DNA of 64,000 nucleotides from Gammaproteobacteria bacterium (GCA_045110495.1 JBGCGE010000045.1:10462-74461), one strand, 5' to 3'; counted from the first letter of the stretch, positions 6,559-63,910 are shown. Notes: generated from the letters alone by a model not told the origin. Program-made: numbers and translations.

Positions 6559-6575
6559 AAAATAGGGGAATTAAA

Positions 6576-7143: not shown

Positions 7144-8508
7144 GTAAAAGGTGGTGTAAATTTCTATAATCTGAAAAGCCTCATTTCCACCTAAAGCAGT
7201 TTTAGCAGCTTCTTTTGGAATAGCTATTCCGTACAAAGCACCAACTTCCAGGTAATCATTTGGAGCCCAATCAACGTAAAGATTAATCTCATCAGCAAAA
7301 GTTCGATCACTAACAGGTTCACCGTAGTAATTCTTTTCATCAAGATCGAATTGAAAGTAGATCAAACCACCGCCCATTGATTCAGTTGGTTCAACAGAAA
7401 GTTGGAGCATGTGAGTTCTCTGATTACTATTGAAGAGAAGATATTCACCCACAATTTCGCCTTGAAACCAGCTTCCCCAGCCGCGACTGAATCCATAAAA
7501 TAATGGATCAAAACCTTCGTATTTATCGGTATCAGGATTGTCTCCAGAAAAATGGCTATAACGATAAGATAATGTTGGTGACCATGAAATATCTGAGAAC
7601 GTATAGGCCGCTTCAGCGTACCAACCATCTGCACTGATGTTGGTTTCATCACCGCCTGATTGCCGAACATATTCGCCAGCAAGAAATAAATCAGGTGTTT
7701 TTTCAAATGGATTACCTTGTGATCGTAAGCTCACAATAGACATGCCATCACGGACGTAATCACGTTCATCTGAATCAATTATCTGCATTAAGCTAAAACC
7801 TGTTGAGCCAGATTCTTCATTCGTTTTTTCAAGATTGAAACCGATTAATTCTGTATTGTCTTGATCTTTATCTGTGGTCAAATAGAAAATGTCTGCACGT
7901 AATGGTCCTGAATTAATTCGCAGGATAGCTGTGTTCTCAAAAGAATTACGCGGTGTAGTCCAATAGTTACCTTTTTCGAATTGATCAAGATTCCCATCCC
8001 AGATCAAAAAGCCATCACCAATTTGAAACTCCTGACGTCCAAAAGATAAATCGATCAAGTCTTCTGAAGAACCAGGTAACGAGCCAGAACGCCAGCCCGC
8101 AAAAAGGTATTCGGTAGATACATCCTCTTCATTACCAGTGACAAACCCACCTGGATCACCTTCACCTCTCGCGAGTCCAGCAACAATCCCAAGACCTGCA
8201 TAAAAAGTACCTGTGTTCTCTGATATGTATTGCGATTCAAGAACAGGTTTAATATATGCTTCGAAAGTTGTGATTGAGCTTGATCGTGTTTCTTCACTGA
8301 TAATATCAAACTGACCACTACCGAAATTTACATCATCAGCCTGAATGGCATAAACACTTGCTTCAAATGAAAAAGTAGTACTGAAACCATTTGAATTAAA
8401 CAGCTCAGTTTCTGCTAAAGCGAATGAAACTTTAAGTATCATAAAGGCACAAAATAACAACGTTTTTGTGAGGTAGTTGCGTTGAAAATTACAATAGCGA
8501 GATAACAT
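7138..8508 (-). CDS. Outer-membrane beta-barrel protein (porin-like; possibly alginate-export/AlgE-like family).
   Basis: Signal peptide, alternating amphipathic beta-strand pattern, aromatic-rich, C-terminal ...EIYTTFYF ending in Phe as is typical of OMPs. Confidence 0.55.
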   Translation of the reverse strand: MLSRYCNFQRNYLTKTLLFCAFMILKVSFALAETELFNSNGFSTTFSFEASVYAIQADDVNFGSGQFDIISEETRSSSITTFEAYIKPVLESQYISENTGTFYAGLGIVAGLARGEGDPGGFVTGNEEDVSTEYLFAGWRSGSLPGSSEDLIDLSFGRQEFQIGDGFLIWDGNLDQFEKGNYWTTPRNSFENTAILRINSGPLRADIFYLTTDKDQDNTELIGFNLEKTNEESGSTGFSLMQIIDSDERDYVRDGMSIVSLRSQGNPFEKTPDLFLAGEYVRQSGGDETNISADGWYAEAAYTFSDISWSPTLSYRYSHFSGDNPDTDKYEGFDPLFYGFSRGWGSWFQGEIVGEYLLFNSNQRTHMLQLSVEPTESMGGGLIYFQFDLDEKNYYGEPVSDRTFADEINLYVDWAPNDYLEVGALYGIAIPKEAAKTALGGNEAFQIIEIYTTFYF

Positions 8509-8603
8509 TATCTTCTCTCATCACTCTTTCTATTTGTGCTGGTCTAATTAGAATCTGATATTGGTTAGAAGTTGAATAAAAGAAGAGCTAAAACGTGCGC
8601 TAT

Positions 8604-8635
8604 ATACCAACGCAATAAACATTCCAGAAATTAAT
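8604..8635 (-). terminator. Rho-independent terminator downstream of the RR-PAS-GGDEF-EAL gene.
   Basis: Perfect 9-bp stem CATTCCAGA / TCTGGAATG with an 8-nt loop, followed on the minus strand by a U-rich tract (UUUAUUG). Confidence 0.5.
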
Positions 8636-8659
8636 ATCTGGAATGATTTATTTCAAATG

Positions 8660-10891: not shown

Positions 10892-10901
10892 TTAGATTAT
10901 C

Positions 10902-12812
10902 TCAGGCTGTTGTTGCTTGTTGTATTTCTGCGACGGGTAGGCTGATAGTAAATATCGCCCCTTTATCTGGCCCATCACTTCGAGCATGGATATTTCCATC
11001 CATTTTAGACAAGGTGTTAGAACACCAGTGCAATCCCAGTCCACCTTTGGTTTTGTCTGTTTTAGTGGTGAAGCCACGCTGAAAGATTGAGTCTATGATT
11101 GAAGGATCTATACCTTTACCGTCATCTTCAAACTGTACTTCTACCATCGATTTATGATTAGGCTTCTCGATTAATTGTGCGCGGATTAATATCCGACCAT
11201 TATTTTTTATTGAGAGTTGTAACGATCGCATAGCATTTACCAGAATCTGATGAAAAACCTGAGTCAACATAAAATCATCAGTGAGAATGGGGGGAAGTTC
11301 ATCAATATTCGAATCAACTTTGATGACTGATTTATTACCAATGTCATCTGGTAAGAATCGAATCGCTTGCTCAATCACTCGAGAGAATTTTTCTGGTTTT
11401 AACTCTTGAGCAGTTCTGCTGAATTGTTCCTGTTCGGAAAGAATCTCTTCTACAAGACCCAATTGCACACCTAATACATCAACAGACGTTTTGATTTGAT
11501 CTTTCTTGGCTCTGGACTCTTCGAAACTGGCTTTTAAATATGACAGCATTTTACGGCCACGATCAGTTAGTTCAGTTTCTGTTGAGAGCTCACTAAAAGC
11601 CCTGTCAGTGTTGTTGTTTGATGATTCATCAAGTATTGCCCTCAGACTACCCAATCGCAGTACAAGAGGGCTTAGTTGATTACGCAAGTTGTGCATCACA
11701 CCTGCGGCCATTTCAGCAATGCCTGCTGAGTAAGATTGTTTTTGAAGATCATGTCTTGCTTCAGAAAGATGATCTAGCATATCGTCAAACTCCCGGCCAA
11801 GTATGCCGATTTCATCTCCCTGTTCTAAGTTGAGGCGTTGAGAGAGATCGCCCGAGTGACTAACACTCAAAGTATGTTCTGATAGTTTTTTTAACGGTGA
11901 GATTATGAAACGATGGAATAGCAGGCCCATCACAATAAGCATTAACACACTTGCGATTAACATACCCCAAAGAGCATACTTAATGGAATGTGTACCAAGT
12001 ACTGAAATACTGCGTTCCACATCTGCGCGTAAGAAAAGAATAGGGCTACCATTCTTATTTCGATACGTAGAATAAACTGATAACAGCTCATCGCTCACTT
12101 CATTTACGACAACACCGTTATCAATGAGATCTTCTGATTGGCTAATAAATATTGTTTGATCTTCTACTGTTAATTTGTTCGTATCCGCTGGCCATAGCTG
12201 GAAATTAACACGTGTCTTTTCATGTATTTTTTCTAATGCAACTTCATTGAGAAAACGTGCCATGATAAGTGTTCCATGGCCAGGCCCATTGGAATTATTA
12301 TCAAGAATAGAGCTAACCGCGATAAACATCGGGCCACTTTTGGTAAGTACAATTTGTGTCGTAATTTTAACTTCATCAGTCGCTTGTATATAAGGATGAT
12401 CAGGTTTGAGTTTTGATAGATAGAGATTGTCATTATGGATAACTTCTTCAGTTACAAAATCATACATCTTTGAGACGAGTAATTGTCCTGATCGATCATA
12501 GATACTGATGTAATTTACATTTAACGTTTCGAGTGAAGATAGCGCGAGGTTTTCTTCCAAAAAGTTATTGTCCTCACCCGCAGCGAAGATATATGTATCA
12601 TCCCAATGTGACCAATCACCGGTGGCATTCTCAAGTTCTTCCAGATTGGCATTTAATGCTTCATGGATTCGGGTCATATCTTTTTGTGCTTCTTGATGTT
12701 CCAGCTCGATAAAGCTTGAAAGAATGAGTCCACGCAAAATCCCATAGTTAGTCAATATTGACAATGCGACAATAAAGCAAAGGATGATTGAAATTTTAAT
12801 TGTTAATTTCAT
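10902..12812 (-). CDS. Membrane sensor histidine kinase, cognate to the downstream RR-GGDEF-EAL gene.
   Basis: N-terminal TM segment, periplasmic domain, second TM, HAMP-like linker, H-box region, C-terminal HATPase_c (DDGKGID ... GGLGLHWCSNTL). A 10-bp gap separates it from the response-regulator gene, suggesting an operon. Confidence 0.8.
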   Translation of the reverse strand: MKLTIKISIILCFIVALSILTNYGILRGLILSSFIELEHQEAQKDMTRIHEALNANLEELENATGDWSHWDDTYIFAAGEDNNFLEENLALSSLETLNVNYISIYDRSGQLLVSKMYDFVTEEVIHNDNLYLSKLKPDHPYIQATDEVKITTQIVLTKSGPMFIAVSSILDNNSNGPGHGTLIMARFLNEVALEKIHEKTRVNFQLWPADTNKLTVEDQTIFISQSEDLIDNGVVVNEVSDELLSVYSTYRNKNGSPILFLRADVERSISVLGTHSIKYALWGMLIASVLMLIVMGLLFHRFIISPLKKLSEHTLSVSHSGDLSQRLNLEQGDEIGILGREFDDMLDHLSEARHDLQKQSYSAGIAEMAAGVMHNLRNQLSPLVLRLGSLRAILDESSNNNTDRAFSELSTETELTDRGRKMLSYLKASFEESRAKKDQIKTSVDVLGVQLGLVEEILSEQEQFSRTAQELKPEKFSRVIEQAIRFLPDDIGNKSVIKVDSNIDELPPILTDDFMLTQVFHQILVNAMRSLQLSIKNNGRILIRAQLIEKPNHKSMVEVQFEDDGKGIDPSIIDSIFQRGFTTKTDKTKGGLGLHWCSNTLSKMDGNIHARSDGPDKGAIFTISLPVAEIQQATTA

Positions 12813-50558: not shown

Positions 50559-52862
50559 TTATAATTTCGCCTCTGACAGTTTTTTCTTATACTCCTTAAC
50601 AGACAGTGCAGACTCATAAGATTTAGTTGCTTCTTTTCTGTTTAAAGGGATGGAGCCTTCTTGATTTGAGGGTGGAACTAGATCGACAGGGTAGCAGGCA
50701 AGTTTTTGTTTTTTTGCGGATAGCGATGGCCGAAAGACCAACTCTCGTATATTTGTTTTCTTCGCTTGTACGACATGGCCTTGCTCGTCTGTATCGAGAT
50801 CCCACCACCATTTTTTTACTGGGTTGATTCGACCATTTCCAACCCAATCATCTAGCTTGGAAATCCATTTGTGCGTAAACGGTAAATGCATTGCTGACCA
50901 TAAAAAAGGGCGTTCAGCCATAACGCCTTCAATATTATAAGGGCAGGTTTTCATACATCGACCGCACATAGATCCAGCAGCATTTGTGATCCGATAACGT
51001 GCACATTTTTCAACATCCTGTTTCCAGATTTCATAAGCGTTGAACATGATCTTTTTACCAAATGAAATTGCAGAACAAGGGCATTCACGAGCGCATTTTT
51101 CACATTCGCCACAGAAATTCTGTAAACCAAAGTCTATTGGTGTATCAACAGCAAGTGGCATGTCTGTAGTAATGACACCGGATTTAAAACGTGGCCCAAC
51201 AAATGGATTGAGAACAAGTTCACCTATACGTGATAATTCACCTAAGCCTGAATTTAGAATAAGTGGAATGTGTAAGACATCTTGATCCATCACACTGTGT
51301 CCGCGAGCGGAATGACCTAAATTACGAATGTGCTGACAAACAATTCCTCCAAGTAATTGCGCGCGCATGTAGGCACGCATACTTTGTGCACCGGAGATCC
51401 AGTCATCTCCACTCGCACCTTCCATCGTTTCATAACCTTGATCAATTAGTATTGAAATAGCATATTTATGATAGGGCTTGATTTCGCTTCCGTCGGTGTC
51501 ATGCGAATACCAGGCATATTCAGGTATCTCACAAATGCCGACCATGTCAGCTCCCAGATAATGTAAAGCTGCCTTAACAGCTTGAGCATTCTTGACTGGA
51601 TCTTCAGTGTCTGGATGGACTGTTTCAGCCTCTTTTCCATATTGAAGCGGAACCATGCTACCGAGTCCTGGGATCATGGCATGCCCAAAAGGTGATTTTG
51701 TGATCATACGAAACCCATCAAGCTCCTTCTTCGCCTTGTCGCCCAAATCACCAATTGCTGCACGAATAAACATGTCATGCCTTTTGGGAATGCGTGGAAC
51801 GTTTGGTGTATCAATAAACGTGGTGGGTTCATCGACATGCTTCACAGTTTCCATTGGGTATGGGCCTAAATGATATGGGCGCTTTTTGAATGGTTCTCCA
51901 GCATAACCGGGACGTGTACCTCCGATGCCAGCCCACCACTTAAAATCACGTGCCTGTTTTGCTGTATTTGGCTTGATAGCGTCGTCAGATGCGAATGACA
52001 TATTTGTAGTTACAACAACAACGCCATATCGATCACTAATGAAAGGATTTTCAGGCTTGTCTGACTTCGAATTTTGTTCAGCGAGGCCACTTGCGACTGA
52101 TAGCATAGTTAAGTCAACATCACTTGCAGTCGGTGTATGTAAAGTCGCGGAATAACCCAGCATTCGTAGATAATTAGCCATTGTACCGCCGATTTCTGCG
52201 CCTCGAATTGCAGCACGCTGTGGCTGACAATCCATAATCCAGTTTGCGCCTGGTTCTTTTTGATCGGGATCGCGAGGGTATTCGATCAAAATCACCAATG
52301 CGTTTTGATGATCATTTTTTACTTGTTGATCATGTTTACGACTCCAGTTTTCGCGTCCTTCATCAACAACACTTTTGGCCATCGCATTTTCAGCAGCACC
52401 GGCTGCAAATTCCTGCTCTTGAGCCTCTTGTAAAGTCTCATTAATGATTGGCGATTCTAACCAGGCCTGATGAGGAATTGAACAGGTCGCGACCATACTG
52501 GCATCAAGATAATAACAAGCCGCTTTTAAGTGATCAGATCGCTCAGACAAACTATCAGGAATGGGAGCTAAATGAGGAGAGGTTTCCCCCAGGCGCATAC
52601 GATCCATTACATTAACGAAATCGCGCATCGCGTTACGAATAGAGAGTGGCGAATCGGGTGATTCAATCTGTAATGCCTCTAATGGCGTATTTGGTAAATT
52701 TCGGGCTTCAAGAGGAATTCTTTTTAAACGTTCAAGCGGAAAAGGGCCGGAAGATACAGGGCGGTTTTTGTGTGAAAACATTCGCATCATTAGATTTTCC
52801 CCTTGCAGTAGTTCCGAAACTGGCAACAGTATTCGTATCATTAATGACGATTTTATTAGCAA
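50559..52862 (-). CDS. Large cytoplasmic reductive-dehalogenase-family (RdhA-like, NpRdhA-type) corrinoid/iron-sulfur protein. True start probably at MMRMF (about 52790).
   Basis: C-terminal FCGECEKCARECP followed by C-x12-CGRCMKTCP, the two [4Fe-4S] motifs characteristic of RdhA and QueG-type enzymes. Internal duplication (LKAACYYLDASMVATCSIPHQAW and VKAALHYLGADMVGICEIPEYAW) as in long catabolic RdhAs. No TAT signal and no adjacent rdhB anchor gene. Confidence 0.55.
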   Translation of the reverse strand: MLIKSSLMIRILLPVSELLQGENLMMRMFSHKNRPVSSGPFPLERLKRIPLEARNLPNTPLEALQIESPDSPLSIRNAMRDFVNVMDRMRLGETSPHLAPIPDSLSERSDHLKAACYYLDASMVATCSIPHQAWLESPIINETLQEAQEQEFAAGAAENAMAKSVVDEGRENWSRKHDQQVKNDHQNALVILIEYPRDPDQKEPGANWIMDCQPQRAAIRGAEIGGTMANYLRMLGYSATLHTPTASDVDLTMLSVASGLAEQNSKSDKPENPFISDRYGVVVVTTNMSFASDDAIKPNTAKQARDFKWWAGIGGTRPGYAGEPFKKRPYHLGPYPMETVKHVDEPTTFIDTPNVPRIPKRHDMFIRAAIGDLGDKAKKELDGFRMITKSPFGHAMIPGLGSMVPLQYGKEAETVHPDTEDPVKNAQAVKAALHYLGADMVGICEIPEYAWYSHDTDGSEIKPYHKYAISILIDQGYETMEGASGDDWISGAQSMRAYMRAQLLGGIVCQHIRNLGHSARGHSVMDQDVLHIPLILNSGLGELSRIGELVLNPFVGPRFKSGVITTDMPLAVDTPIDFGLQNFCGECEKCARECPCSAISFGKKIMFNAYEIWKQDVEKCARYRITNAAGSMCGRCMKTCPYNIEGVMAERPFLWSAMHLPFTHKWISKLDDWVGNGRINPVKKWWWDLDTDEQGHVVQAKKTNIRELVFRPSLSAKKQKLACYPVDLVPPSNQEGSIPLNRKEATKSYESALSVKEYKKKLSEAKL

Positions 52863-52906
52863 GGCAACAGAGAAATGCTTTCCTGCCTGCGATGCCTTAA
52901 AAGCTA

Positions 52907-52951
52907 TATCGACGTTAACATAATATTTCGATTATGTTAATAATATCGATA
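52907..52951. promoter_or_regulatory. Palindromic operator candidate in the divergent promoter region.
   Basis: Perfect inverted repeat TTAACATAAT-atttcg-ATTATGTTAA (52915-52940) nested inside an outer TATCGA ... TCGATA repeat. Confidence 0.5.
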
Positions 52952-53013
52952 TTATGCGGTAATACATTTTGGAATAATTTTTCGTTTCGGGCATCAATGT
53001 TATTAAATGAAGG

Positions 53014-54030
53014 TTGATTTATTCTGGTGATCATTTTCTATATTATGAATCTATGAACATAGTCATTCTTGGTTGTGGTGGCATTGGTTGCTATTTTGGA
53101 GCTCGGCTTTTACAAGCTAGACATCAGGTTACTTTTATAGGGAGGGGTGACCATCTAGCGGCGATAAAAAAACACGGACTCAAAGTAGATCATCCTGATT
53201 TTTCATTTAATCAAGGGGTTGATGCCGTCTCGATTGATCAATGGGTTTCAGAATTTGATCCGGAAATTGTCGATGTCGTTTTATTATCTGTTAAAGCTAT
53301 GGTAACGACAGAAGTTGCTGAGCTATGTGCAAGGTGGATTAACTCATCCAGGAAAAAACCTTTCTTTGTTTCATTGCAAAATGGTGTAGATAATGAGATC
53401 AATTTAGTAAAAAATCTTGGTGAAGATAAAGTGATTGGAGGATTAACTCGACGCATCGGAGCAAACATTGAATTACCAGGAATGATTTCGGCAACGGGCC
53501 CAGCAGAGACGATTATAGGTTTTTGGCCTAATTCCGATCATCTAGATAATTCTGACAGTGTTAATGATTCTGATCGAGGAAAAGTTTTTGTTACAAAACT
53601 TCAAGCAGTTTTTAACGAGGCTGGTATTCCCACCGAGCAATCAGAAGACATTCGTTTGCAGCTATGGAAAAAATTGGTGATCAATAATGGGGTTAATGCA
53701 CTTGCCGCATTGTTGCAGAAAAAAACTGGAGCAATATTAAAAGATAAAGCATTAGCGGATCTTGTGATGAAGATGATGCAAGAGACGGCGATTGCGGCAA
53801 AATGTGATGACGTAATTTTAAGCTCAGAAGACATTCAGGAAATGTATGATCTGATCTGTACTTTTGATTCGATTAAACCTTCAATGTTGATTGATCGGGA
53901 AAGAGGTCGACCTCTGGAAATAAATGAGATTTGTGGCGCTGTTATAGAACGCAGTGAAAAGCTCGGAGTCGATGCACCTTATACAAGATCAATAAGTACA
54001 TTACTTCAGTTTGAAATAGATCAGAAATGA
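53014..54030 (+). CDS. Ketopantoate-reductase (PanE/ApbA) family NAD(P)H-dependent oxidoreductase.
   Basis: N-terminal Rossmann motif IVILGCGGIGCYFGARL and the ApbA C-terminal domain; 338 aa. Confidence 0.7.
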   Translation: MIYSGDHFLYYESMNIVILGCGGIGCYFGARLLQARHQVTFIGRGDHLAAIKKHGLKVDHPDFSFNQGVDAVSIDQWVSEFDPEIVDVVLLSVKAMVTTEVAELCARWINSSRKKPFFVSLQNGVDNEINLVKNLGEDKVIGGLTRRIGANIELPGMISATGPAETIIGFWPNSDHLDNSDSVNDSDRGKVFVTKLQAVFNEAGIPTEQSEDIRLQLWKKLVINNGVNALAALLQKKTGAILKDKALADLVMKMMQETAIAAKCDDVILSSEDIQEMYDLICTFDSIKPSMLIDRERGRPLEINEICGAVIERSEKLGVDAPYTRSISTLLQFEIDQK

Positions 54031-54070: not shown

Positions 54071-54676
54071 ATGAGTGAATATGCGCTTGCAGCATTTGTT
54101 TTTGGACTGGCTGCAGGTTTTACGCCTGGACCGTTATCGATAATAGTGATCCAGCAAACACTTGATCATGGTTTAAAAAATGGTATCAAAGCAGCTATTG
54201 CTCCGATTATTTCTGATGGACCAATTATTTTTTTTGTTTATATTCTTTTTAACAAGTTTCAGGATATAGATTTATTTATCGGGGTCATAAGTTTACTAGG
54301 AGCATTATTTTTATTTTGGATAGCAATAAAAATGTCTGCAGTTAATGATGTTAATATTTCGACGCGTTCAGAAAAAGCAAACTCGCTTTCTACAGCGGTT
54401 AAAGTTAATTTATTAAATCCACACGCTTATATATTCTGGTTTACTGTTGGCGGAGCATATATCGCTTCAGGTACAAAATTAGAAGCGATAACGTTTGTCT
54501 TTATCATGATTAGTACGTTGATTTTATCAAAAATATTTCTTGCCAGTTTAATATCAAAATTCAGAAAGTTTCTTAATAGTAATTCCTATTTATGGATGAT
54601 GCGTACTCTTGGATTATTATTAGGCATGTTCAGTTTTTTATTGCTTTATAGAAGTTATAATATTTTATTTGTATAA
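54071..54676 (+). CDS. LysE/RhtB-family amino-acid efflux protein.
   Basis: Six TM segments; N-terminal FGLAAGFTPGPLSIIVI motif typical of LysE translocators. Confidence 0.7.
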   Translation: MSEYALAAFVFGLAAGFTPGPLSIIVIQQTLDHGLKNGIKAAIAPIISDGPIIFFVYILFNKFQDIDLFIGVISLLGALFLFWIAIKMSAVNDVNISTRSEKANSLSTAVKVNLLNPHAYIFWFTVGGAYIASGTKLEAITFVFIMISTLILSKIFLASLISKFRKFLNSNSYLWMMRTLGLLLGMFSFLLLYRSYNILFV

Positions 54677-54773
54677 ATAATATTAATTATTTTTTTAGAA
54701 ATAAACTCGTATGCACAAAGTTGTGATTGAAAATAGTTTTATAGATTAATGCAACAATCCTGGATCAGAAATT

Positions 54774-55328
54774 ATGGAAAAAGTAGAGCCTGTTACGGTT
54801 GTTATCGCTCGCCGAGTTAAACCTGGAAAGGAAAGCGAATATGAAGATTGGGTGCGACATATAATATCCGTCGGTTCAACATTTCCTGGTCATTCCGGTG
54901 TCGATGTTTTAAAACCTTCATCTGGGACTGGTGGTGAATATATTTTAATTACACGTTTTGATAATTATGAAAACCAACGCGTCTGGGAAGAGTCGAATGA
55001 AAGAACCGAACTTCTGAAAGAACTTGATCCTATAACCGAAGGCGATGCACAGATAACAAAAGCTACAGGTTTAGAATCCTGGTTTTCTTTACCAGAAGTT
55101 CCAAAACAAGCCGTAGCAAACAGACATAAAATGACAGTTGTAATAGCAGTGTCGATCTTTTTCTTAGTCCTATTAGTTAACTTTCTATTTAAACCAATAC
55201 TGGATCAACTTCCGTATATTCTTAAAGTCGCGGTACTTTCTGTCATTCAGGTTGCCATGCTGTCTTACGTTGTTTTGCCAAGAGTTACGGCATTGTTAAA
55301 AAACTGGTTATATCCATCTCTTAAATAA
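54774..55328 (+). CDS. ABM (antibiotic-biosynthesis-monooxygenase-like) domain fused to a C-terminal two-TM segment.
   Basis: N-terminal ferredoxin-like ABM fold pattern (VTVVIARRVKPGKESEYEDW ... ILITRFDNYENQRVWEES) followed by hydrophobic helices. Confidence 0.45.
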   Translation: MEKVEPVTVVIARRVKPGKESEYEDWVRHIISVGSTFPGHSGVDVLKPSSGTGGEYILITRFDNYENQRVWEESNERTELLKELDPITEGDAQITKATGLESWFSLPEVPKQAVANRHKMTVVIAVSIFFLVLLVNFLFKPILDQLPYILKVAVLSVIQVAMLSYVVLPRVTALLKNWLYPSLK

Positions 55329-55496
55329 TCAGACTAATTCCTGAATGTAGTGAAATGGTATTGATAACAGCTTTTCAGTAAACTGTTGAGACGACGAAGA
55401 TTTTTTGCCGGTAAATTCGTGAAAGTGGATCCATTCAATTTTGTCAGCGATTCCTAAAGTATTTCGCGCAATAATAAAGATAAAACAGGAGATGGC

Positions 55497-56108
55497 ATGA
55501 AACTTAAAGTAATAGGTGCAGGCCTCGGTCGAACAGGATCAACGTCCTTAAAAAAAGCGTTAGAAATTTTGGATATTGCTCCTTGTTATCACATGACTGA
55601 ATTATTTGGAAATCATCCGGAACATATTTCAGCATGGGAAGATGTGCTTAAAGGTAAGCCGGATTGGGAGCATATCTATGCAGAATATAATGCCGCGGTT
55701 GATTGGCCTACAGCGAATTATTGGCGCGAACTTGCAACTTTTTATCCAGAGGCAAAAGTCGTGTTGACTGTGCGCGATCCTGATACCTGGTATGAAAGTG
55801 TGATGGCGACGATCTATCCTAAAACACTAGAATTCTTACAAGATGAAGATCCAGATGTTCGAGCAAGAGGCGACTGGATCAATCGGCTTATCTGGGAAGG
55901 GGTTTTTTCTGGCAGAATTGAAGATAGAGCGCACGCCATCGACGTTTATCAGCAACATGCAAAAGCGGTAAAACAAGATTGTCCAGCTGAGCGATTACTG
56001 GTCATGGATAGAAATTTTGAGTGGAAGCCATTATGTGATTTTCTTGAAACTTCAGTCCCTGATGTGCCTTACCCGAGAGCTAATTCACGCGCTGATTTCA
56101 CACAGTAA
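55497..56108 (+). CDS. PAPS-dependent sulfotransferase-family protein.
   Basis: 5'-PSB loop GLGRTGSTS at the N-terminus and the 3'-PB region (VLTVRDPDTWYES); 203 aa. Confidence 0.65.
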   Translation: MKLKVIGAGLGRTGSTSLKKALEILDIAPCYHMTELFGNHPEHISAWEDVLKGKPDWEHIYAEYNAAVDWPTANYWRELATFYPEAKVVLTVRDPDTWYESVMATIYPKTLEFLQDEDPDVRARGDWINRLIWEGVFSGRIEDRAHAIDVYQQHAKAVKQDCPAERLLVMDRNFEWKPLCDFLETSVPDVPYPRANSRADFTQ

Positions 56109-56144: not shown

Positions 56145-57440
56145 ATGTGCCTGGATCATAATTTAAGCTCATCATTCAGCTCTAAATATAGTTCGCTCTT
56201 GGTATTTAACTTACTAGTTGTCGTTATCTTCTTATTTATTCTGATAAGTGCAGCCTTAGCCGCTGACGATTTGCCTTCTGAAAAGATCATTAATAGTGAA
56301 AATATTTCTGAATACGAGAATTACCTTGATGAAACATTGATCGATTTGATCAAAAAAAACTACTTTACATTAGAAATAATTCCTACAGAGTCGTTTCCTG
56401 TACATCCTGAGTATGCTGCTGCAACTGAAAAAAACAGAGGTAAAACAAAACTAGGTACACTACCTGGCGAGATAAATGGTTATATCGCGGGCAGGCCTTT
56501 TCCTGAAACACCATCAACTGATGATCAACTTGCGGGAGATAAAATCGCATGGAATATGAGATATGCATTTGTTGGTGATGGAGGACGAATTGCTCCATTT
56601 TATTGGCAATATCGAAATATGCGAACCGATAAAATAGAGCGAGAATTATCTTTTGAAGCTAATAGTTTACGCTTTAAGCATCGGACAGTAACTTCTCCAA
56701 TACCTGACTTACCAAATAATCCTTCTGCAATTTTTAATGCACTTTATTTACGTGCGTTGGCACCACCAGATATTCGAAATACTCAGCTTTTAATTCACCG
56801 ACTGGAAGATGATACAAGCTCAGAAAGAGGTTGGATGTATATAGGCACCCAACGTCGTGTTCGTCGTATCCCAACTGGACAGAATACAGATTCATTCCTT
56901 GGTAGCGATATTATGATCGAAGATTTTATGGGTTATAACGGCCGAATAATGGATATGCAATGGACGTATCTCGGAACAAAAAAAGTGCTTATGCCATTCT
57001 ACAGGCATAACGAATTAGAATTTGAAAAACAAGAAAGTGATGGTTTTAACTTTATCGAATATGAAGGAAAAGGTGGTTGCTTTCCAAGGGTGAAGTGGCA
57101 GTTTCGTACTGCGTATGTTTTAGAAGTATCACCAAGATGGTCACAGCATCCACTTTCTAAGCGAGTTTATTATGTTGATGCGGAAACATTTATGCCAGCA
57201 TATGGCCGTTTATATGATCGCAGTAAAAAACTATGGAAATTAGCTATTGTGAGTTACTCGCATCCTGATCATCATTTGCCGATCAATAAAGACAGCTATG
57301 TTCCAATCTTTGATGGCGTGACGATGATTGATCTGCAAGCAAATCATTGCACAACGCTACAGGCAAGATCAGAAGCATCATCTAAAAAACTAACGGGCTT
57401 GGATTTCTCAGTTCAAACGTTACGTAGAAAAGGACGTTGA
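56145..57440 (+). CDS. DUF1329-family (LolA-like) secreted protein, orphan (no adjacent DUF1302 partner).
   Basis: N-terminal signal/anchor, then a pattern recalled from DUF1329 proteins (KKNYFTLEIIPTESFPVHPEYAAATEKNRGKTKL ... GYIAGRPFP); 431 aa. The family assignment is from memory of the domain pattern. Confidence 0.45.
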   Translation: MCLDHNLSSSFSSKYSSLLVFNLLVVVIFLFILISAALAADDLPSEKIINSENISEYENYLDETLIDLIKKNYFTLEIIPTESFPVHPEYAAATEKNRGKTKLGTLPGEINGYIAGRPFPETPSTDDQLAGDKIAWNMRYAFVGDGGRIAPFYWQYRNMRTDKIERELSFEANSLRFKHRTVTSPIPDLPNNPSAIFNALYLRALAPPDIRNTQLLIHRLEDDTSSERGWMYIGTQRRVRRIPTGQNTDSFLGSDIMIEDFMGYNGRIMDMQWTYLGTKKVLMPFYRHNELEFEKQESDGFNFIEYEGKGGCFPRVKWQFRTAYVLEVSPRWSQHPLSKRVYYVDAETFMPAYGRLYDRSKKLWKLAIVSYSHPDHHLPINKDSYVPIFDGVTMIDLQANHCTTLQARSEASSKKLTGLDFSVQTLRRKGR

Positions 57441-57497: not shown

Positions 57498-58790
57498 ATG
57501 TCCTCTTCGTTATTAATTATTTCTGGTTGGTTTTTATTAATCTCTACGTTTTTTTCTATTTTTAATGGTTTTTTTCCTTCAATTCTTCTTTCTATTTCCG
57601 GAATATTAAGTGCTATAGCGGCCATGATTTTGTTTCAGAAATTGAGCGGAATTCAACGTTTACAAGTATTCCTCTTAACAACAACAGGATTTTTATTGAT
57701 CCTGACAAGTGATGAAAATATTCCCTTTTTGATCAACAAAGCACTGACAGCAAACAGCGCTTTAATTGCACTTTTGATCAGTGTTGGGTTTCTGAAACTG
57801 ATCATAAAAGCCGGTGATGAAAAAGAGGCTTTGCCGACCGGTAATAAAGCCTTATGGAAAACAATGTTCGGATTACAATACTTTGCTGCGGTGATCAATC
57901 TTTCAGCTATTGTGTTATTTGGTGATCGCATAAAGCACAAAAACACATTGCATAAAGAGCAATTTATAATTCTGTCACGTAATTTTAGTGCTGCAAGTTA
58001 TTGGTCTCCTTTTTTTGCTGCAATGGGAGTGGCCTTGCTTTATTCCGGCGGAGCAGATTTTAATATTTTATTTTCTATCGGTGTGTGCGTATCTGCATGT
58101 GGATTATTGATCACGGGATTGCAATGTTCGCAGATCGTTAAAAAAGAGCAGAGAGAATTTAAAGGCTATCCGATGCACATCAATAGCCTTTTTTTGCCGA
58201 TTATTTTAAGTGCGCAGGTTTTGATCGGTCATAAAATATTTCCAGAAGTTTCCACATTGATCTTAGTTGCATGTATCGTGCTAATTACTGTAGTTGTAAA
58301 ACTTATTTTTGAACATTCAATACCCAAAGCATTTTCTACTATTAAAAAACATGTTGAGAATGGAATAACAAATTCAGCAAGTGAGTTATTATTATTTTTA
58401 TCAGCCGGTATTCTGGCGGTAGGAATCAATGCACTAATTTCATCAATGGATTATAAATTACCAATAGATCAATTTACTGGTGTTTATGCTTCACTCACCA
58501 TGATTGGAACTGTTTTGCTCGCTTTGATTGGCATCCACCCGGTGATCAGTATTAGTATCATTGGAAGCCTCCTCGTACCCCTACTTACAGATCCAAACCT
58601 GTTGGGTATGATGTTTTTATTCAGCTGGGGTGCCGGCGTGATTGCGAATCCCTTGTCTGGAATAAGTCTGGTTTTACAGTCACGTTATAACATCACCGGT
58701 TTTAATCTGATCAGAATCAATGCAACTTATATAATGGTCATGTTAATGTTATGTAGTGGCGTTTTAATCCTATATGATTACTTACATTGA
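57498..58790 (+). CDS. Polytopic inner-membrane transporter-like protein (about 12 TM segments), family unknown.
   Basis: 430 aa, hydrophobic throughout with an inverted-repeat-like arrangement. Located directly upstream of the XylR-family regulator. Confidence 0.4.
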   Translation: MSSSLLIISGWFLLISTFFSIFNGFFPSILLSISGILSAIAAMILFQKLSGIQRLQVFLLTTTGFLLILTSDENIPFLINKALTANSALIALLISVGFLKLIIKAGDEKEALPTGNKALWKTMFGLQYFAAVINLSAIVLFGDRIKHKNTLHKEQFIILSRNFSAASYWSPFFAAMGVALLYSGGADFNILFSIGVCVSACGLLITGLQCSQIVKKEQREFKGYPMHINSLFLPIILSAQVLIGHKIFPEVSTLILVACIVLITVVVKLIFEHSIPKAFSTIKKHVENGITNSASELLLFLSAGILAVGINALISSMDYKLPIDQFTGVYASLTMIGTVLLALIGIHPVISISIIGSLLVPLLTDPNLLGMMFLFSWGAGVIANPLSGISLVLQSRYNITGFNLIRINATYIMVMLMLCSGVLILYDYLH

Positions 58791-58866
58791 TACACATCAA
58801 TAGCGGATAAATATGAATAAACAAACATTTCTGCCTTGGCATTTTATTTAGCAAAAAATATTGCTT

Positions 58867-60537
58867 ATGAAAAAGAACGAATCCGCACCTTTTCCAAACC
58901 TTAATGATCTGAAAGAAGCTTTTCAGTTTGATGACGCCTCTGGTTGTGTCTGGCTTGAAGGTCAGCGAATGTTGTTGTTTCATGCCGCTGCTCTGGATGC
59001 GCTTCGCAATGAACTAATTGAGTCATTGGGTCTGGATCGTGCAAAAGGCGTTTTAATGCGAATGGGTTATCAATCTGGAAAACAAGATGCCCAATTAGCC
59101 AGAAAGCTTCGTCCAGGAGCTACTGATTGCGAACTTTTCGCAGTAGGACCACAACTTCATACTTTGGAAGGTATTGTTCGTGTAGAACCGATCAAACTTA
59201 CACTCGACATTGAAGCCGGAGAACATTATGGCGAGTTCAACTGGATCAATTCTTTTGAGGCCGAGCAACATTTGAATCGATATGGGATTCACTCCGAACC
59301 TGTCTGCTGGAATCAAATCGGTTACGCCTGTGGTTATTCCAGTGAGTTAATGGGGAAGCCGATCATTTATAAAGAAGTTGAATGTGTGGGTTGTGGCCAG
59401 GAAACTTGTCGGATCATCGGAAAGCCCGCAGAAGAGTGGGAAGATGCAGAACAACTCGCCGCCTATTTTTCACAAGGCTCACTGGCGGAAACACTGTTTA
59501 ATTTAAAAGACGAAGTTCAAAACTTGCGTAATGCGATCAAAAAAGAGGTTGAGCCACAAGATATTATTGGTCAGTCCCCGGCAATACGCGAAACACTTCA
59601 TATGCTGGAAAAAGCATCAAACACGAATGTCACCGTCTTAATGTTGGGTGAAACAGGGGTTGGTAAAGATACTTATGCTCGTCTGCTTCACAGAATGAAT
59701 GAAAATTCAGACAAACCTTTTGTGCAGGTTAATTGTTCTGCTTTGCCTGCGGATCTTGTCGAAGCTGAATTATTTGGTGTTGAAAAAGGTGCATATACGG
59801 GAGCTGAAAAATCACGCCCGGGACGTTTTGAAAGAGCGCATGGAGGTACTTTATTTCTGGACGAAATTGGGGAAATGAATATTGCTGTTCAGGCAAAATT
59901 ATTACGTGTTTTACAAACGGGTGAATTTGAACGTGTTGGAGATACACGCACACGAAAGGTAAAAGTCAGGTTAATTACGGCAACCAATCAACCATTAGAA
60001 GAGCGTGTAAATCAAGGTTTATTTAGAGCCGATCTTTTTTACAGGATAAATGTTTTCCCTATAAATATTCCGCCATTGAGAGAACGAAAAGAAGATATCC
60101 AGGGCCTGGTTGACAGGTTTGTTGGAATGTTTAATGCCGAATATGGAAAGAATGTAATGGGTATTGACGAGTCTCTTTTTGCGCAATTTCAGCAATATGA
60201 TTGGCCAGGAAATATTCGCGAGCTTGAAAACATAATCGAACGTGGGGTAATCCTGACTGACAATGGCAAATTAATTGATACCTCGTATATCAATCTTGAT
60301 CCAATAGTTTCTTCACCAGACGCTTCAACTTCAATAGAAAAAAATACCACATCATTTACAACTGCAACTCAAATATTAGCAGCAATGCAAGAGAATGAAG
60401 TTGGGCTGGAAGAAATAGAACAACAGTTGCTAGATACAGCCCTGGAACAGGCAGAAGGGAATATCTCGGCTGCCTCACGTGCACTAAATATTAGTTCTGC
60501 AAAGTACCGTTACAGAATACAAAAAAACAAAGAATAG
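58867..60537 (+). CDS. Sigma-54-dependent transcriptional activator of the XylR/DmpR family.
   Basis: N-terminal XylR-N/V4R-type effector-sensing domain ([28 protein letters not shown] ... ACGYSSE). AAA+ sigma-54 interaction domain ([36 protein letters not shown]-like). C-terminal helix-turn-helix domain. Confidence 0.85.
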
Positions 60538-60624: not shown

Positions 60625-60648
60625 CAATGTGATCATATGATCACATTG
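60625..60648. promoter_or_regulatory. Perfect 24-bp palindrome, candidate upstream activating sequence for the XylR/DmpR-like activator.
   Basis: CAATGTGATCATATGATCACATTG (perfect dyad), followed by a partial second copy TGATCATATGAT at 60652-60663. Lies about 85 bp upstream of the candidate -24/-12 promoter. Confidence 0.6.
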
Positions 60649-60728
60649 ATTTGATCATATGATTAATATTTAACTAACTATTTTTCCAATTTGCAAAAAA
60701 TACCCATAAATATCAATCAGATATGTTA

Positions 60729-60774: not shown

Positions 60775-61053
60775 GTGAAGACAATAATAATAAACATGGC
60801 CGGCCCAGATCATAAATTTGTAAGAATCACGAACGTACGTGATGATAAATATATCGAATTCGATTTTTCATTCGAAGATCCTGAGATATTTGTTGAACTC
60901 ATTCTCCCTGTGGAAATGTTTCAAACATTCTGCGAAAAAAATAAAGTGCAATTCCTGGAAGTAGATAAAAATGTTTCTGAAGAGTATGAAAAACAGATCT
61001 GGCGACTGGGACAAGCTGGAAAAAAGTTTTTGAAAAATAAAAGAACACTATAG
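60775..61053 (+). CDS. dmpK: Phenol hydroxylase assembly component (DmpK-like). Start may be the GTG at 60775 or the ATG at 60796.
   Basis: Protein of about 90 aa (VRITNVRDDKYIEFDFSFEDPEIFVELILP) at the head of an SDIMO operon in dmpKLMNOP order. Confidence 0.6.
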   Translation: MKTIIINMAGPDHKFVRITNVRDDKYIEFDFSFEDPEIFVELILPVEMFQTFCEKNKVQFLEVDKNVSEEYEKQIWRLGQAGKKFLKNKRTL

Positions 61054-61064: not shown

Positions 61065-62057
61065 ATGCATATAGATATAAAAAGCAAAAATGTAGAAACG
61101 ATCAGGAATACTTTTGATCATATAAAAGAACGTTTTGGTGACAAACCTGCGAGTCGCTATCAAGAAGCAACTTTCGATCTTCAACCAACCGCAAATTTTC
61201 ACTATCGCCCAACGTGGCAGCCACAATTTGAACTGTACGATGTAAGACGTACGGCTGTTGTGATGGAGGATTGGTACAAACTGACTGACCCTCGTCAATT
61301 TTATTACGCCTCTTACGTAATGAATCGTGCACGTTTACAAGAATCTGCAGATCAAAATTTCACGCTTATAGAAAAGCGGGGACTGCTTGATTTAATGCCT
61401 GATACTGTTAAGCAAAAAATATTGAATTACGTTCTACCACTGCGCCATTACTCGTGGGGTGGAAACATGAACAATACTCAAATTTGTGCAATGGGTTACG
61501 GAACAGCGATCACGGCGCCTGCGATGTTTCATGCGGCGGATCATTTAGGTATCGCACAATACATAACGCGCATTGGACTTTTGATCGGTGAAAACGAAGT
61601 CGAAATATTAGATCAATCAAAAAAAGATTGGGTTGAAAAACAACAATGGCAAGGGTTAAGAAAAGCAGTTGAAGATAGTTTTGTGCTAGAAGATTGGTTT
61701 GAATTATTTGTTGTTCAAAATTTTGTAATGGATGGATTAATACATCCATTATTTTTTAATCATTTTGAAGCACAAATTAATAAAGAAGGTGGAACCGCCG
61801 AATCCATGATGACTGGTTTTATGGCGGACTGGTATAAGGAAACAACTCGTTGGGTTGATGCTCAGCTCAAAGTGGCAGCATCCGAGTCGGAACAGAATAA
61901 TAAATTGATAACGGGTTGGATCAATAAATGGTTGAGTGTTTTGGAAGATGCACTTTTACCGCTTGCGACAGGTGCGCTCGATGATGGTGACGCCATTATG
62001 GCAGAAATTAAATCTGCATTGGTTAAACGTGCTGAAAAAATAAATATAAAACTTTAA
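61065..62057 (+). CDS. dmpL: Phenol hydroxylase beta subunit (DmpL-like).
   Basis: 330 aa non-catalytic hydroxylase subunit; operon position and size match group-1 SDIMO. Confidence 0.7.
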   Translation: MHIDIKSKNVETIRNTFDHIKERFGDKPASRYQEATFDLQPTANFHYRPTWQPQFELYDVRRTAVVMEDWYKLTDPRQFYYASYVMNRARLQESADQNFTLIEKRGLLDLMPDTVKQKILNYVLPLRHYSWGGNMNNTQICAMGYGTAITAPAMFHAADHLGIAQYITRIGLLIGENEVEILDQSKKDWVEKQQWQGLRKAVEDSFVLEDWFELFVVQNFVMDGLIHPLFFNHFEAQINKEGGTAESMMTGFMADWYKETTRWVDAQLKVAASESEQNNKLITGWINKWLSVLEDALLPLATGALDDGDAIMAEIKSALVKRAEKINIKL

Positions 62058-62071: not shown

Positions 62072-62344
62072 ATGACCGAAAACGTATTTTTAGCACTACA
62101 AGCAAATGACGATGCCAGGCCTATTGTTGAAGCGATCGAGAAAGATAATCCTGATGTTGATGTTAGCTATCAACCTGCAATGATTCGTATGACAGCACCA
62201 GGAAAGTTAACCGTTTTACGTGAGACAGTTTCTGAACTGATCGGGCGAGACTGGGATCCGCAAGAACTTCACCTGGTACTTATTTCTTTTGGTGGAAATG
62301 TCGAAGAAGATGAAGACCAATTTACTATTTCATGGGCAAGCTAA
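62072..62344 (+). CDS. dmpM: Phenol hydroxylase regulatory/effector protein (MmoB/DmpM family).
   Basis: 90 aa; ALQANDDARPIVEAIEKDNPDVDVSYQPAMIRMTA ... ISFGGNVEEDEDQFTISW matches the DmpM pattern. Confidence 0.8.
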   Translation: MTENVFLALQANDDARPIVEAIEKDNPDVDVSYQPAMIRMTAPGKLTVLRETVSELIGRDWDPQELHLVLISFGGNVEEDEDQFTISWAS

Positions 62345-62389: not shown

Positions 62390-63910
62390 ATGGCTAAAAG
62401 ATTAAACATGAGAGACCGTTACGACTACATGACGCGTCTTGGTTGGGACACAACATACCAACCAAAAGAAAAAGTTTTTCCTTATGATAAATATGAAGGA
62501 ATAAAGATTAAAGATTGGTCAGGTTGGGAAGATCCTTTTCGAATGACGATGGATAGCTATTGGAAATATCAGGGCGAAAAAGAAAAAAAGCTTTATGCAA
62601 TTTTAGATGCTTTTGCACAAAATAATGGACATGAAAATATTACGGATGCGAGTTATCTGAACGCGATAAAACTTTTCATACAAGGAATTACACCTGCTGA
62701 ATATTCGGCTCATCGCGGTTTTGCATTTACCGGAAGACATTTTGCTGGTGATGGTGCACGTGTAGCTTGCCAGATGCAGGCAATAGATGAACTGCGTCAT
62801 GCACAAACTCAAATTCATACTATCAGTCACTACAATAAACATTTTAGTGGGATGCACGATTTCACACATTGGGGTGATCGTATCTGGTACTTATCTGTTC
62901 CCAAATCATTTTTTGATGATGCGCGAACCGCGGGGCCATTTGAATTTATGGTGGCGATTGGGTTTTCATTTGAATATGTTTTAACCAATCTGTTGTTTGT
63001 TCCGTTTATGTCGGGAGCTGCGTATAACGGTGACATGGCAACAGTCACATTTGGCTTTTCTGCCCAATCTGATGAAGCCCGTCATATGACGCTAGGTTTA
63101 CAAGTTATCAAATTTATTTTGGAACAACACGAAGATAATTTGCCTATTGTTCAAAAATGGATCGATAAATGGGTGTGGCGCGGTTATAAAGTGTTAGGCC
63201 TTGTTTCAATGATGATGGATTACATGCTGCCAGAAAGTCCAATGTCATGGAAAGAATCGTGGGAGCTTTATTTTGAGGAGAACGCAGGCGCCTTATTTAA
63301 AGACCTTGAACGGTATGGAATAAAACAACCTTCTTACGTGGATATTTGTTCGAAAGAAAAAGAACATTTAAGCCATCAAGTATGGAGTATTTTTTACAAC
63401 CACACTGCTGCCGCCGCATTTCATACCACGCTACCAGATGAGAAAAAAATGGATTGGCTGTCAGAAAAATATCCAGATACGTTTGATAAATTTTACCGTC
63501 CAAGATATGACCTGTGGCGTGAACGAGAAGAAGCGGGCGAGCGGTATTACAGTAAAACGTTACCCATGCTGTGCCAGACTTGTCAGATACCGATGGGCTA
63601 CACAGAGAAAGATGATTTCACCCAGATTGCTTATCGCCATTCTGACTTTGGTGGTGATAGATACAATTTTTGTTCTGATCCTTGCAAAGCTATTTTTGAT
63701 GATGAACCCGAAAAATATGTTCAGGCCTGGATGCCAGTACAACAAATCTTCCAGGGTAATTGTGGCGGTGCTGATATCAAGGATGTATTGAAGTGGTACA
63801 AGCTTGAAGATGGTGTCGACAACATGGATTATCACGGATCATTAGATGAAAAGCGTTGGAAAGAAATGAAAGGTTTTGCAGATAATTCAAGTGATAAAAC
63901 GGGTACATAA
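62390..63910 (+). CDS. dmpN: Phenol hydroxylase alpha (diiron catalytic) subunit (DmpN-like).
   Basis: Diiron ligand motifs DELRHAQTQ and SDEARHMT. Collinear with DmpN throughout (YWKYQGEKEKKLYAILDAFAQNNGH ... FVPFMSGAAYNGDMATVTFGFSAQ). Confidence 0.9.
   Translation: MAKRLNMRDRYDYMTRLGWDTTYQPKEKVFPYDKYEGIKIKDWSGWEDPFRMTMDSYWKYQGEKEKKLYAILDAFAQNNGHENITDASYLNAIKLFIQGITPAEYSAHRGFAFTGRHFAGDGARVACQMQAIDELRHAQTQIHTISHYNKHFSGMHDFTHWGDRIWYLSVPKSFFDDARTAGPFEFMVAIGFSFEYVLTNLLFVPFMSGAAYNGDMATVTFGFSAQSDEARHMTLGLQVIKFILEQHEDNLPIVQKWIDKWVWRGYKVLGLVSMMMDYMLPESPMSWKESWELYFEENAGALFKDLERYGIKQPSYVDICSKEKEHLSHQVWSIFYNHTAAAAFHTTLPDEKKMDWLSEKYPDTFDKFYRPRYDLWREREEAGERYYSKTLPMLCQTCQIPMGYTEKDDFTQIAYRHSDFGGDRYNFCSDPCKAIFDDEPEKYVQAWMPVQQIFQGNCGGADIKDVLKWYKLEDGVDNMDYHGSLDEKRWKEMKGFADNSSDKTGT

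Follow-up and report, generated by a model that had tools for sequence, protein, structure and literature searches.

The subject of this report is a reductive dehalogenase gene (rdhA) and its surroundings in a 64,000-nucleotide stretch of DNA from a Gammaproteobacteria bacterium (GCA_045110495.1, JBGCGE010000045.1:10462-74461), called the window here. The gene probably encodes a soluble corrinoid/[4Fe-4S] dehalogenase of halophenols that acts upstream of a linked, DmpR-controlled phenol hydroxylase (PH), and the KPR-family (PanE/ApbA) oxidoreductase gene that diverges from rdhA is judged to be unrelated to it. This reading is carried by the close match of the product (RdhA) to the crystallised catabolic RdhA of Nitratireductor pacificus pht-3B (NpRdhA) and by a comparison of the neighbours of rdhA in 166 related loci (80 from reference genomes, 6 from the closest relatives, and 80 from metagenomes). 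The stretch had been described before in a note made from the sequence alone, referred to here as the original prediction.

Architecture and relatives of the dehalogenase

The longest rdhA open reading frame (ORF) spans 50559..52862 on the minus strand and would encode 767 aa from a TTG start. The likely true start is the ATG at position 52790, which lies 7 nucleotides downstream of a GGGGA Shine-Dalgarno sequence and gives a protein beginning MMRMFSH. This start, and a length of 743 aa, are adopted because the homologues and NpRdhA align from MRMFSH or MRLYSN and because the deposited protein has 743 aa. The 767 aa of the original prediction are thus right for the ORF and probably wrong for the protein, and the upstream in-frame extension is probably an untranslated 5' leader. 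The protein is identical to MFK8068521.1 (743 aa; from a 127,792-bp contig of a metagenome-assembled genome of a Gammaproteobacteria bacterium), which is already annotated at NCBI as 'reductive dehalogenase domain-containing protein'.

RdhA scores 217.2 bits with the NCBIfam reductive dehalogenase model TIGR02486 (RDH; cutoff 160.35) and only 26.6 bits with the QueG model TIGR00276 (cutoff 200). Pfam recognises a ferredoxin-like Fe-S segment alone, below the gathering thresholds. The best matches among solved structures are those of NpRdhA (4RAS, 6ZXU, and 6ZY0), which align over almost the full length with E about 1e-171. The respiratory enzyme PceA matches with E=1.5e-25 over residues 492-686, and the QueG structure with E=0.004.

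The identity between RdhA and NpRdhA is 46.5% across 565 residues. The NpRdhA residue numbering in this alignment was validated with the K488Q variant (6ZY0). NpRdhA residues F291, F310, S422, M423, Y426, K488, and R552 are all kept; the counterparts of Y426, K488, R552, and S422 are Y474, K536, R600, and S470 in the 743-aa numbering. The roles of the catalytic Tyr-Lys dyad and of the hydroxyl-binding residues are those described for NpRdhA (PMC7565698, PMC10463259). Four pocket positions are changed from NpRdhA to the window protein (F290M, P311R, A419G, and N452V). Across an alignment of 27 homologues the catalytic Tyr, Lys, and Arg and the Fe-S cysteines are invariant, and the Arg in place of NpRdhA P311 is kept in at least 90% of the sequences.

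Two Cys motifs are present, CGECEKCARECP at residues 560-571 and C-x12-CGRCMKTCP at residues 596-617 (743-aa numbering). The N-terminal half of the protein aligns with its C-terminal core (BLASTP E=3e-22, 29% identity), and a vestigial duplication of this kind is a hallmark of catabolic RdhAs (PMC10463259). There is no twin-arginine (TAT) motif in the first 60 residues and no transmembrane helix in the protein, the highest 19-residue hydropathy window being 1.07. No gene for an rdhB-like small membrane protein flanks rdhA, the neighbours of which are scpB and the KPR-family gene. As far as can be read from the sequence, the product is a cytoplasmic catabolic reductive dehalogenase with the architecture of NpRdhA. 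Its identity to corrinoid-bound NpRdhA across the core predicts that it binds a corrinoid and dehalogenates.

The original prediction had described the two Cys motifs exactly as they are found, and its internal duplication and its lack of a TAT signal and an rdhB anchor were borne out by the alignment, motif, hydropathy, and neighbour results above. It had also proposed a search with hidden Markov models and an alignment to NpRdhA as checks on its assignment to an NpRdhA-type RdhA. The assignment holds in both: TIGR02486 is above its cutoff with QueG far below, the catalytic Tyr/Lys/Arg are all present, and the structure alignment agrees.

More than 4,450 RdhA homologues were found at E<=1e-20. 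In the 80 reference-genome loci, 58 of the 72 RdhA ORFs bear a C-terminal extension of about 330 aa with a 2Fe-2S motif. The window RdhA has no such extension (0 residues), its tail lacks a Fer2 motif, and all members of the reference-genome set that are at least 57% identical to it are likewise unfused. Fused exceptions exist inside the near clade, defined here as the clade of the window protein. These are P0064, P0081, P0096, and L099 (1,103 aa), of which P0064 and L099 carry a fused Fer2/NAD-binding module.

A neighbor-joining tree built from 506 shared columns contains three groups: the gammaproteobacterial clade of the window protein, a fused clade, and a separate unfused clade that includes NpRdhA. 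The window clade is mostly unfused; its sister is the fused clade, and NpRdhA falls elsewhere. The tree is rough and has no support values; it is used for the groupings only, its midpoint root is unreliable, and the long branch of L097 is spurious and was disregarded. The window RdhA apparently has the architecture of NpRdhA but belongs to a different lineage.

In most catabolic RdhAs, fusion to a phthalate-dioxygenase-reductase-like (PDOR) module makes the enzyme self-sufficient (PMC10463259). NpRdhA and other naturally truncated RdhAs adjoin genes for a ferredoxin reductase and two ferredoxins, which failed to reconstitute activity, and NpRdhA is active with spinach ferredoxin and E. coli flavodoxin reductase (PMC10463259). 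Few catabolic RdhAs have been characterised, and the unfused ones are without a confirmed physiological electron donor (PMC10463259). The statement of the original prediction that the reductase partner is still missing for this enzyme class therefore applies to the naturally truncated forms and not to the PDOR fusions.

A second catabolic RdhA of N. pacificus pht-3B was found at locus L064 (NZ_AMRM01000001.1:154522-176573). This locus was considered as the source of the crystallised NpRdhA and rejected, as it does not contain the 4RAS sequence. Its ORF of about 1,070-1,111 aa is a PDOR-fused paralogue, distinct from the unfused NpRdhA.

Phenol-hydroxylating enzymes near rdhA

Within the window, a gene for a DmpR/XylR-type sigma-54 activator is followed by dmpK, dmpL, dmpM, and dmpN in canonical order (Table 1). 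The window ends at base 64000, before any dmpO or dmpP. The original prediction of a complete phenol hydroxylase operon is thus upheld only as far as the cluster is visible (dmpR, K, L, M, and N), as the window ends inside the operon. The nested palindromes in the dmpR-dmpK spacer are presumed to be upstream activator sites of the DmpR-type regulator. A scan of the rdhA-KPR and dmpR-dmpK spacers for sigma-54 promoters (TGGCAC-N5-TTGCA, at least 8 of 11 positions, GG/GC fixed) gave no match. The scan is uninformative, having missed even the dmpR-dmpK spacer, where a promoter is expected, and nothing is concluded from it for rdhA.

In the related loci, rdhA and phenol-hydroxylating genes occur together in four arrangements. 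In the two closest relatives (L081, 73% identity, and L082, 74% identity), rdhA is directly divergent from a gene set of dmpKLMNOP, a Fer2 ferredoxin, catechol 2,3-dioxygenase, DUF1302, and DUF1329. In L081, rdhA is closely followed on its downstream side by genes for a DmpR-type regulator, 74% identical to that of the window, and a 427-aa membrane protein. The order rdhA, dmpR, PH is found in L006, L088, L092, and L117, and the order PH, dmpP, ferredoxin, rdhA in L098, L101, and L102. In L001, L004, and L008, the order is DUF1302, DUF1329, a DSBA-like gene, rdhA, HpaB, and DUF1329. HpaB enzymes are flavin-dependent phenol monooxygenases and form a family with no relation to the diiron phenol hydroxylase.

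For counting, loci were de-duplicated and required to have at least 8 kb of total flank, and a gene was scored when it lay within 10 kb of rdhA. Among the 24 near-clade loci, PH is present in 9, HpaB in 3, and DUF1329/1302 in 9. None of the three occurs in the distant, mostly reductase-fused clade (0 of 89 loci each). PH or HpaB is therefore beside rdhA in 12 of 24 near loci and 0 of 89 distant loci (Fisher p=5e-10), and the linkage of rdhA to phenol-hydroxylating enzymes is clade-specific. That the linkage is functional is argued from the four arrangements and the two non-homologous hydroxylase families. The comparison, with the divergent operons of L081 and L082, lends strong support to the original proposal that RdhA feeds phenol hydroxylation.

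In the library searched, no paper was found that links catabolic RdhAs with phenol hydroxylase. In a cold-seep survey, gammaproteobacterial cytosolic RdhAs are mentioned solely in relation to alkane degradation (PMC12219181). DUF1302 and DUF1329 have no established function (10.1101/2020.07.04.188060) and have previously been drawn inside a phenol hydroxylase cluster (PMC7012976).

The remaining near-clade loci show other contexts: a thiamine diphosphate (TPP)-dependent enzyme with a zinc-dependent alcohol dehydrogenase (Zn-ADH) and RidA (L083, L086, and L005), a flavin-containing monooxygenase (FMO)-like gene (L084), or nothing recognisable. The first of these belongs to relatives of 66-71% identity, in which genes for a Zn-ADH/quinone-oxidoreductase-like protein, a benzoylformate-decarboxylase-like TPP-dependent protein, rdhA, and RidA lie together (L083:7219-12633, L086:7256-12696, and L005:3322-7594). 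This context may point to a different class of halogenated substrate. Nitrile hydratase subunits are encoded about 8-9 kb upstream in L086, and in L081 rdhA is likewise adjoined by a Zn-ADH gene (48% identical). The HpaB-type order described above belongs to a sister subclade of 60-62% identity (L001:5776-15158; also L004, L008, and L003). Its DSBA-like thioredoxin-fold family is also found near rdhA in L083, L086, and L005.

The divergent oxidoreductase gene and the tandem operator

The KPR-family gene has a longest ORF of 338 aa (53014..54030, plus strand) with a likely ATG start at 53053, and its product corresponds to the deposited MFK8068522.1 (325 aa, 'ketopantoate reductase family protein'). 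The spacer between the starts of rdhA and this gene is 262 bp. The protein scores 99.3 bits with PF02558, 93.9 bits with PF08546, and 215.9 bits with TIGR00745 (cutoff 141), and no equivalog-level model is above its cutoff, so that its substrate may be 2-dehydropantoate or another ketone. All three models agree with the family named in the original prediction.

None of the 166 related loci has a KPR homologue within 10 kb of its rdhA (tblastn), and this includes the loci of the closest relatives at 73-74% identity. After de-duplication, adjacency is found in 1 of 24 near-clade loci, which is the window itself, and in 0 of 89 distant-clade loci. The original prediction took the KPR protein as the reductase partner in a two-gene system, to be given up if the gene was not conserved next to rdhA in related genomes. 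It is conserved in none of them, and the proposal was dropped.

KPR homologues are widespread and commonly annotated as 2-dehydropantoate 2-reductase. The two closest (67% and 51% identity) are located directly after TmoA-B-C(Rieske)-D-E-type diiron monooxygenase operons and are followed by the gene for a 433-aa polytopic membrane protein, with stop and start codons that abut or overlap. In the reverse look-up, no rdhA was in view near the closest KPR homologues. An ABM-Y2318_C protein is also encoded near the KPR homologue in L167 and L168. Both the membrane-protein and the ABM families are homologous to window genes (57498..58790 and 54774..55328, respectively). The conserved company of the KPR gene is thus the membrane protein and the ABM protein at aromatic monooxygenase clusters, not RdhA. 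PanE/ApbA enzymes catalyse hydride transfer from NADPH to a carbonyl group and have no flavin or Fe-S centre, which makes them poor candidates for one-electron delivery to a [4Fe-4S] cluster. The KPR gene is judged to be a chance neighbour outside the dehalogenase system.

The trio of a KPR oxidoreductase, a membrane protein of about 430 aa, and an ABM+Y2318_C protein recurs at aromatic diiron monooxygenase clusters (L167:4326-10856 and L169:2393-10268). In L167-L169 the KPR gene directly follows TmoABCDE, in the usual slot of a TmoF-type reductase, and no Fer2/FAD/NAD reductase was seen within 8 kb. One KPR homologue from Sulfurimonas (P0185, 505 aa) has a Y2318_C domain fused to KPR.

The spacer upstream of rdhA contains a perfect 10-bp inverted repeat, TTAACATAAT-N6-ATTATGTTAA, at 52915-52940. 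This repeat is unique in the window, and perfect inverted repeats with arms of at least 10 bp and a spacer of at most 12 nucleotides occur at only two places in the 64 kb, the other being 60625-60663. The repeat includes the first of two putative operator sites, P1 and P2 (Table 1), which share their outer arms and have centres 20 bp apart. Of the two hexamers on the rdhA strand (TCGATA-18-TATTAT), the first lies at the centre of P2 and the second within P1.

The P2 palindrome, ATAATATCGATATTAT, occurs with at most one mismatch only three times in 2.66 Mb of related loci. One occurrence lies about 135 nucleotides upstream of the L082 rdhA, with 1 mismatch, and the divergent neighbour there is a Dabb-family gene. 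The other two are upstream of the DUF1302 gene in L081 and L082, each with a second copy 18-19 bp away. The DUF1302 promoters keep the same register, with TCGATA-17-TATAAT in L081 and TCGACA-16-TATAAT in L082. No copy of the motif precedes the KPR homologues in L167-L170.

A conserved tandem operator, as judged from these sites, overlaps a sigma-70-like promoter directed at rdhA, and the motif tracks rdhA and DUF1302/DUF1329, not KPR. The arrangement suggests repressor-type control of a small regulon, rdhA with DUF1302/DUF1329, by a putative regulator. The original prediction had placed a palindromic operator between rdhA and KPR as shared by the two genes. The repeat is real; it is part of a tandem pair and not a lone operator, and its assignment to KPR is not upheld.

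Table 1. Positions of the features described in the text, numbered from the first base of the window.
Feature	Position	Strand	Remarks
rdhA, catabolic reductive dehalogenase, 743 aa	50559..52790	-	TIGR02486, NpRdhA alignment, duplication, Cys motifs
rdhA upstream in-frame extension	52791..52862	-	GGGGA Shine-Dalgarno at 52798-52802
Putative operator site P1, CATAATATTTCGATTATG	52919..52936		core of the 10-bp repeat; overlaps -10-like TATTAT (52925-52920, -)
Putative operator site P2, perfect 16-bp palindrome ATAATATCGATATTAT	52940..52955		TCGATA core (52949-52944, -) is the -35-like hexamer
KPR-family (PanE/ApbA) NAD(P)H oxidoreductase, 325 aa	53053..54030	+	PF02558/PF08546, TIGR00745
ABM-domain protein, hydrophobic C-terminal region	54774..55328	+	recurs near rdhA/PH in L082 and beside KPR homologue in L167
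DUF1329 (LolA-like) outer-membrane-associated protein	56145..57440	+	family recurs beside rdhA in the near clade
430-aa polytopic membrane protein, no Pfam family	57498..58790	+	beside DmpR in L081; right after KPR homologues in L167/L169
DmpR/XylR-type sigma-54 activator	58861..60537	+	XylR_N, V4R, Sigma54_activat, HTH_8
Nested perfect palindromes in dmpR-dmpK spacer	60625..60663		24-bp CAATGTGATCATATGATCACATTG overlapping ATCATATGAT-N12-ATCATATGAT
dmpK	60775-61053	+	phenol hydroxylase component
dmpL	61065-62057	+	phenol hydroxylase component
dmpM	62072-62344	+	phenol hydroxylase component
dmpN	62390-63910	+	phenol hydroxylase component; operon continues past the window

Between the KPR and DUF1329 genes, at 54071-56108, are genes for a LysE-family exporter, the ABM protein, and a Sulfotransfer_4-family sulfotransferase. 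The GC content of this stretch is 0.36, compared with about 0.41, and the LysE and sulfotransferase genes have no counterparts in any related rdhA locus. The stretch may be an insertion that separates rdhA from the PH cluster. At the far end of the window (132-12812) is a cyclic di-GMP/two-component cluster that encodes a GGDEF-EAL protein, a CHASE-PAS histidine kinase, a REC-PAS-GGDEF-EAL protein, and a CHASE4-HAMP kinase. After this cluster come genes for a PilZ/YcgR-like protein, FlgA, a CheW-REC (CheV-like) protein, and CheR. This is ordinary chromosomal content, unrelated to rdhA.

Proposed pathway and electron supply, and known systems

Every catabolic RdhA characterised so far acts on ortho-halogenated phenols (PMC10463259). 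By this analogy, and from its conserved residues, the substrates of the window RdhA would be ortho-halophenols. In the proposed pathway, RdhA would remove halogens ortho to the hydroxyl group of halophenols in the cytoplasm. The linked multicomponent phenol hydroxylase, controlled by DmpR, would then act on the resulting phenol, and, as the gene content of the relatives indicates, the ring of the catechol would be opened by catechol 2,3-dioxygenase (meta cleavage). Dehalogenation is placed before hydroxylation as the likely order. Direct hydroxylation of a 2-halophenol by phenol hydroxylase would yield a 3-halocatechol. Catechol 2,3-dioxygenase is inactivated by 3-halocatechols, and removal of the halogen beforehand would spare the meta pathway.

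The window RdhA ends after the RdhA module, and a donor is therefore needed in trans. Electrons would come from an FNR-type reductase or a plant-type [2Fe-2S] ferredoxin, for which the nearest candidates are DmpP and the DmpQ-like ferredoxin. A tblastn search for a dedicated reductase, using two PDOR modules and a DmpQ-like ferredoxin, gave no match in the window, and in the unfused relatives it returned the PH-associated DmpP and ferredoxin only. The donor is at least as likely to be a housekeeping ferredoxin/FNR pair as DmpP/DmpQ.

Several observations weigh against this pathway or parts of it. About 8 kb and five unrelated-looking genes separate rdhA from the phenol hydroxylase genes in the window, and dmpO, dmpP, the ferredoxin, and the dioxygenase are outside the span of the window. 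Twelve of the 24 near-clade loci have no phenol-hydroxylating enzyme within 10 kb, and with the other contexts found there the linkage is frequent, not universal, and the clade is not tied to one pathway. The loci are phylogenetically related, so that the Fisher p overstates their independence. The HpaB-linked and PH-less loci are without DmpP/DmpQ, which therefore cannot serve as a general donor. The four pocket residues that differ from NpRdhA mean that the substrate range could differ. Sigma-70-like sites are no commoner than in shuffled sequence (7 vs 10.7), and the promoter assignment thus relies on the conserved position within the operators.

Other explanations of the locus were weighed against the halophenol pathway. 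That the protein is not a dehalogenase and is another class-III corrinoid/Fe-S reductase, for example a QueG-like epoxyqueuosine reductase, is highly improbable. The sub-threshold Pfam match, limited to the Fe-S segment, and the weak QueG match of 27 bits would fit such an enzyme; they are outweighed by the TIGR02486 score (217 bits over a cutoff of 160, with QueG far short of 200), by a nearly full-length NpRdhA alignment at 46.5% in which every catalytic and hydroxyl-binding residue is kept, and by a vestigial duplication specific to catabolic RdhAs. We give equally little credence to rdhA and KPR as a two-gene system in which KPR supplies electrons from NAD(P)H and both genes are co-regulated through a shared palindromic operator. 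The two genes do diverge over a 262-bp spacer with real palindromes, the RdhA is unfused with no obvious reductase gene in the visible window, and hexamers on the KPR strand (TTAACA-18-AATAAT, 52915-52944) overlap the operator, so that KPR may be co-regulated in this genome. Against this stand the 0 of 166 related loci with a KPR homologue, the operator kept upstream of the L082 rdhA opposite a Dabb-family gene and absent upstream of the KPR homologues, and the place of the closest KPR homologues after TmoABCDE-type operons, abutting the membrane-protein gene. RdhAs moreover need one-electron donors, as in the Fer2-containing PDOR fusion of most relatives (PMC10463259).

A less remote, though still unlikely, alternative accepts a catabolic RdhA and takes the PH link as incidental. 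The enzyme would then serve para-substituted halophenols that are degraded by other routes (for example 3,5-dibromo-4-hydroxybenzoate or halogenated hydroxyphenyl-2-oxoacids), or would be a general detoxifying enzyme fed by housekeeping ferredoxin/FNR. NpRdhA and BhbA prefer 3,5-dibromo-4-hydroxybenzoate (PMC10463259, PMC7565698), NpRdhA is active with a non-cognate ferredoxin and flavodoxin reductase, and P311R puts a conserved Arg near the pocket in the window clade. Some near-clade rdhA genes are accompanied by a TPP-dependent decarboxylase-like gene with Zn-ADH and RidA, or by an FMO-like gene, and not by PH. Evidence against an incidental link is the presence of PH or HpaB in 12 of 24 near loci, in four arrangements and two non-homologous families, compared with 0 of 89 distant loci, and the fact that the linkage is tightest, through divergent promoters, in L081 and L082, the nearest relatives of the window gene.

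The halophenol pathway can be extended, tentatively, to a dedicated halophenol regulon. It would comprise a repressor that acts on the tandem ATAATATCGATATTAT operators of rdhA and the DUF1302/DUF1329 genes, a halophenol uptake device made of DUF1302/DUF1329, electron supply from the FNR-type reductase of the phenol hydroxylase (DmpP) and/or the DmpQ/XylT-like plant-type ferredoxin, and protection of the meta-cleavage dioxygenase against 3-halocatechols. We regard this extension as doubtful. If true, it would identify a physiological donor for a truncated catabolic RdhA and assign DUF1302/DUF1329 a first function.

Oxygen-tolerant catabolic RdhAs matter for bioremediation and for the marine bromine cycle, and together the window locus and its relatives delimit a mostly unfused RdhA clade of Gammaproteobacteria. 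The linkage supports a concrete pathway (halophenol to phenol to catechol to ring cleavage) and yields a short list of candidate donors, DmpP and the DmpQ-like ferredoxin. The operator motif could serve to isolate the regulator, and a false lead is removed in that the KPR gene is not the missing reductase.

The closest known system is NpRdhA (4RAS, 6ZXU, 6ZY0, and 6ZY1). Like the window RdhA, it is cytoplasmic, has no TAT signal, RdhB, or fused reductase, and contains a vestigial N-terminal copy of the corrinoid core, a functional core, and two [4Fe-4S] motifs. The two differ in context, with a ferredoxin reductase and two ferredoxins beside NpRdhA (PMC10463259) and PH/HpaB and DUF1302/1329 in the window clade. 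BhbA (Comamonas sp. 7D-2) and JtRdhA (Jhaorihella thermophila) share the RdhA module and the catalytic residues, and in them too reductive dehalogenation feeds an aerobic aromatic pathway; their Fer2/FMN/NAD extension of about 330 aa is absent from the window RdhA.

The respiratory RdhA/RdhB systems (PceA of Sulfurospirillum multivorans, 4UQU) have a homologous corrinoid/Fe-S core. The window RdhA differs from PceA in having no TAT signal and no rdhB, in its additional vestigial domain, and in lying among genes of aerobic catabolism. The hydroxylase cluster resembles the dmp operon of Pseudomonas sp. CF600 (dmpR, dmpKLMNOP, dmpQ, and dmpB) in its regulator, spacer palindromes, and dmpKLMN order. 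Unlike the CF600 operon, it is accompanied by a reductive dehalogenase, DUF1302/DUF1329, and a 430-aa membrane protein, which are not part of the classical dmp operon.

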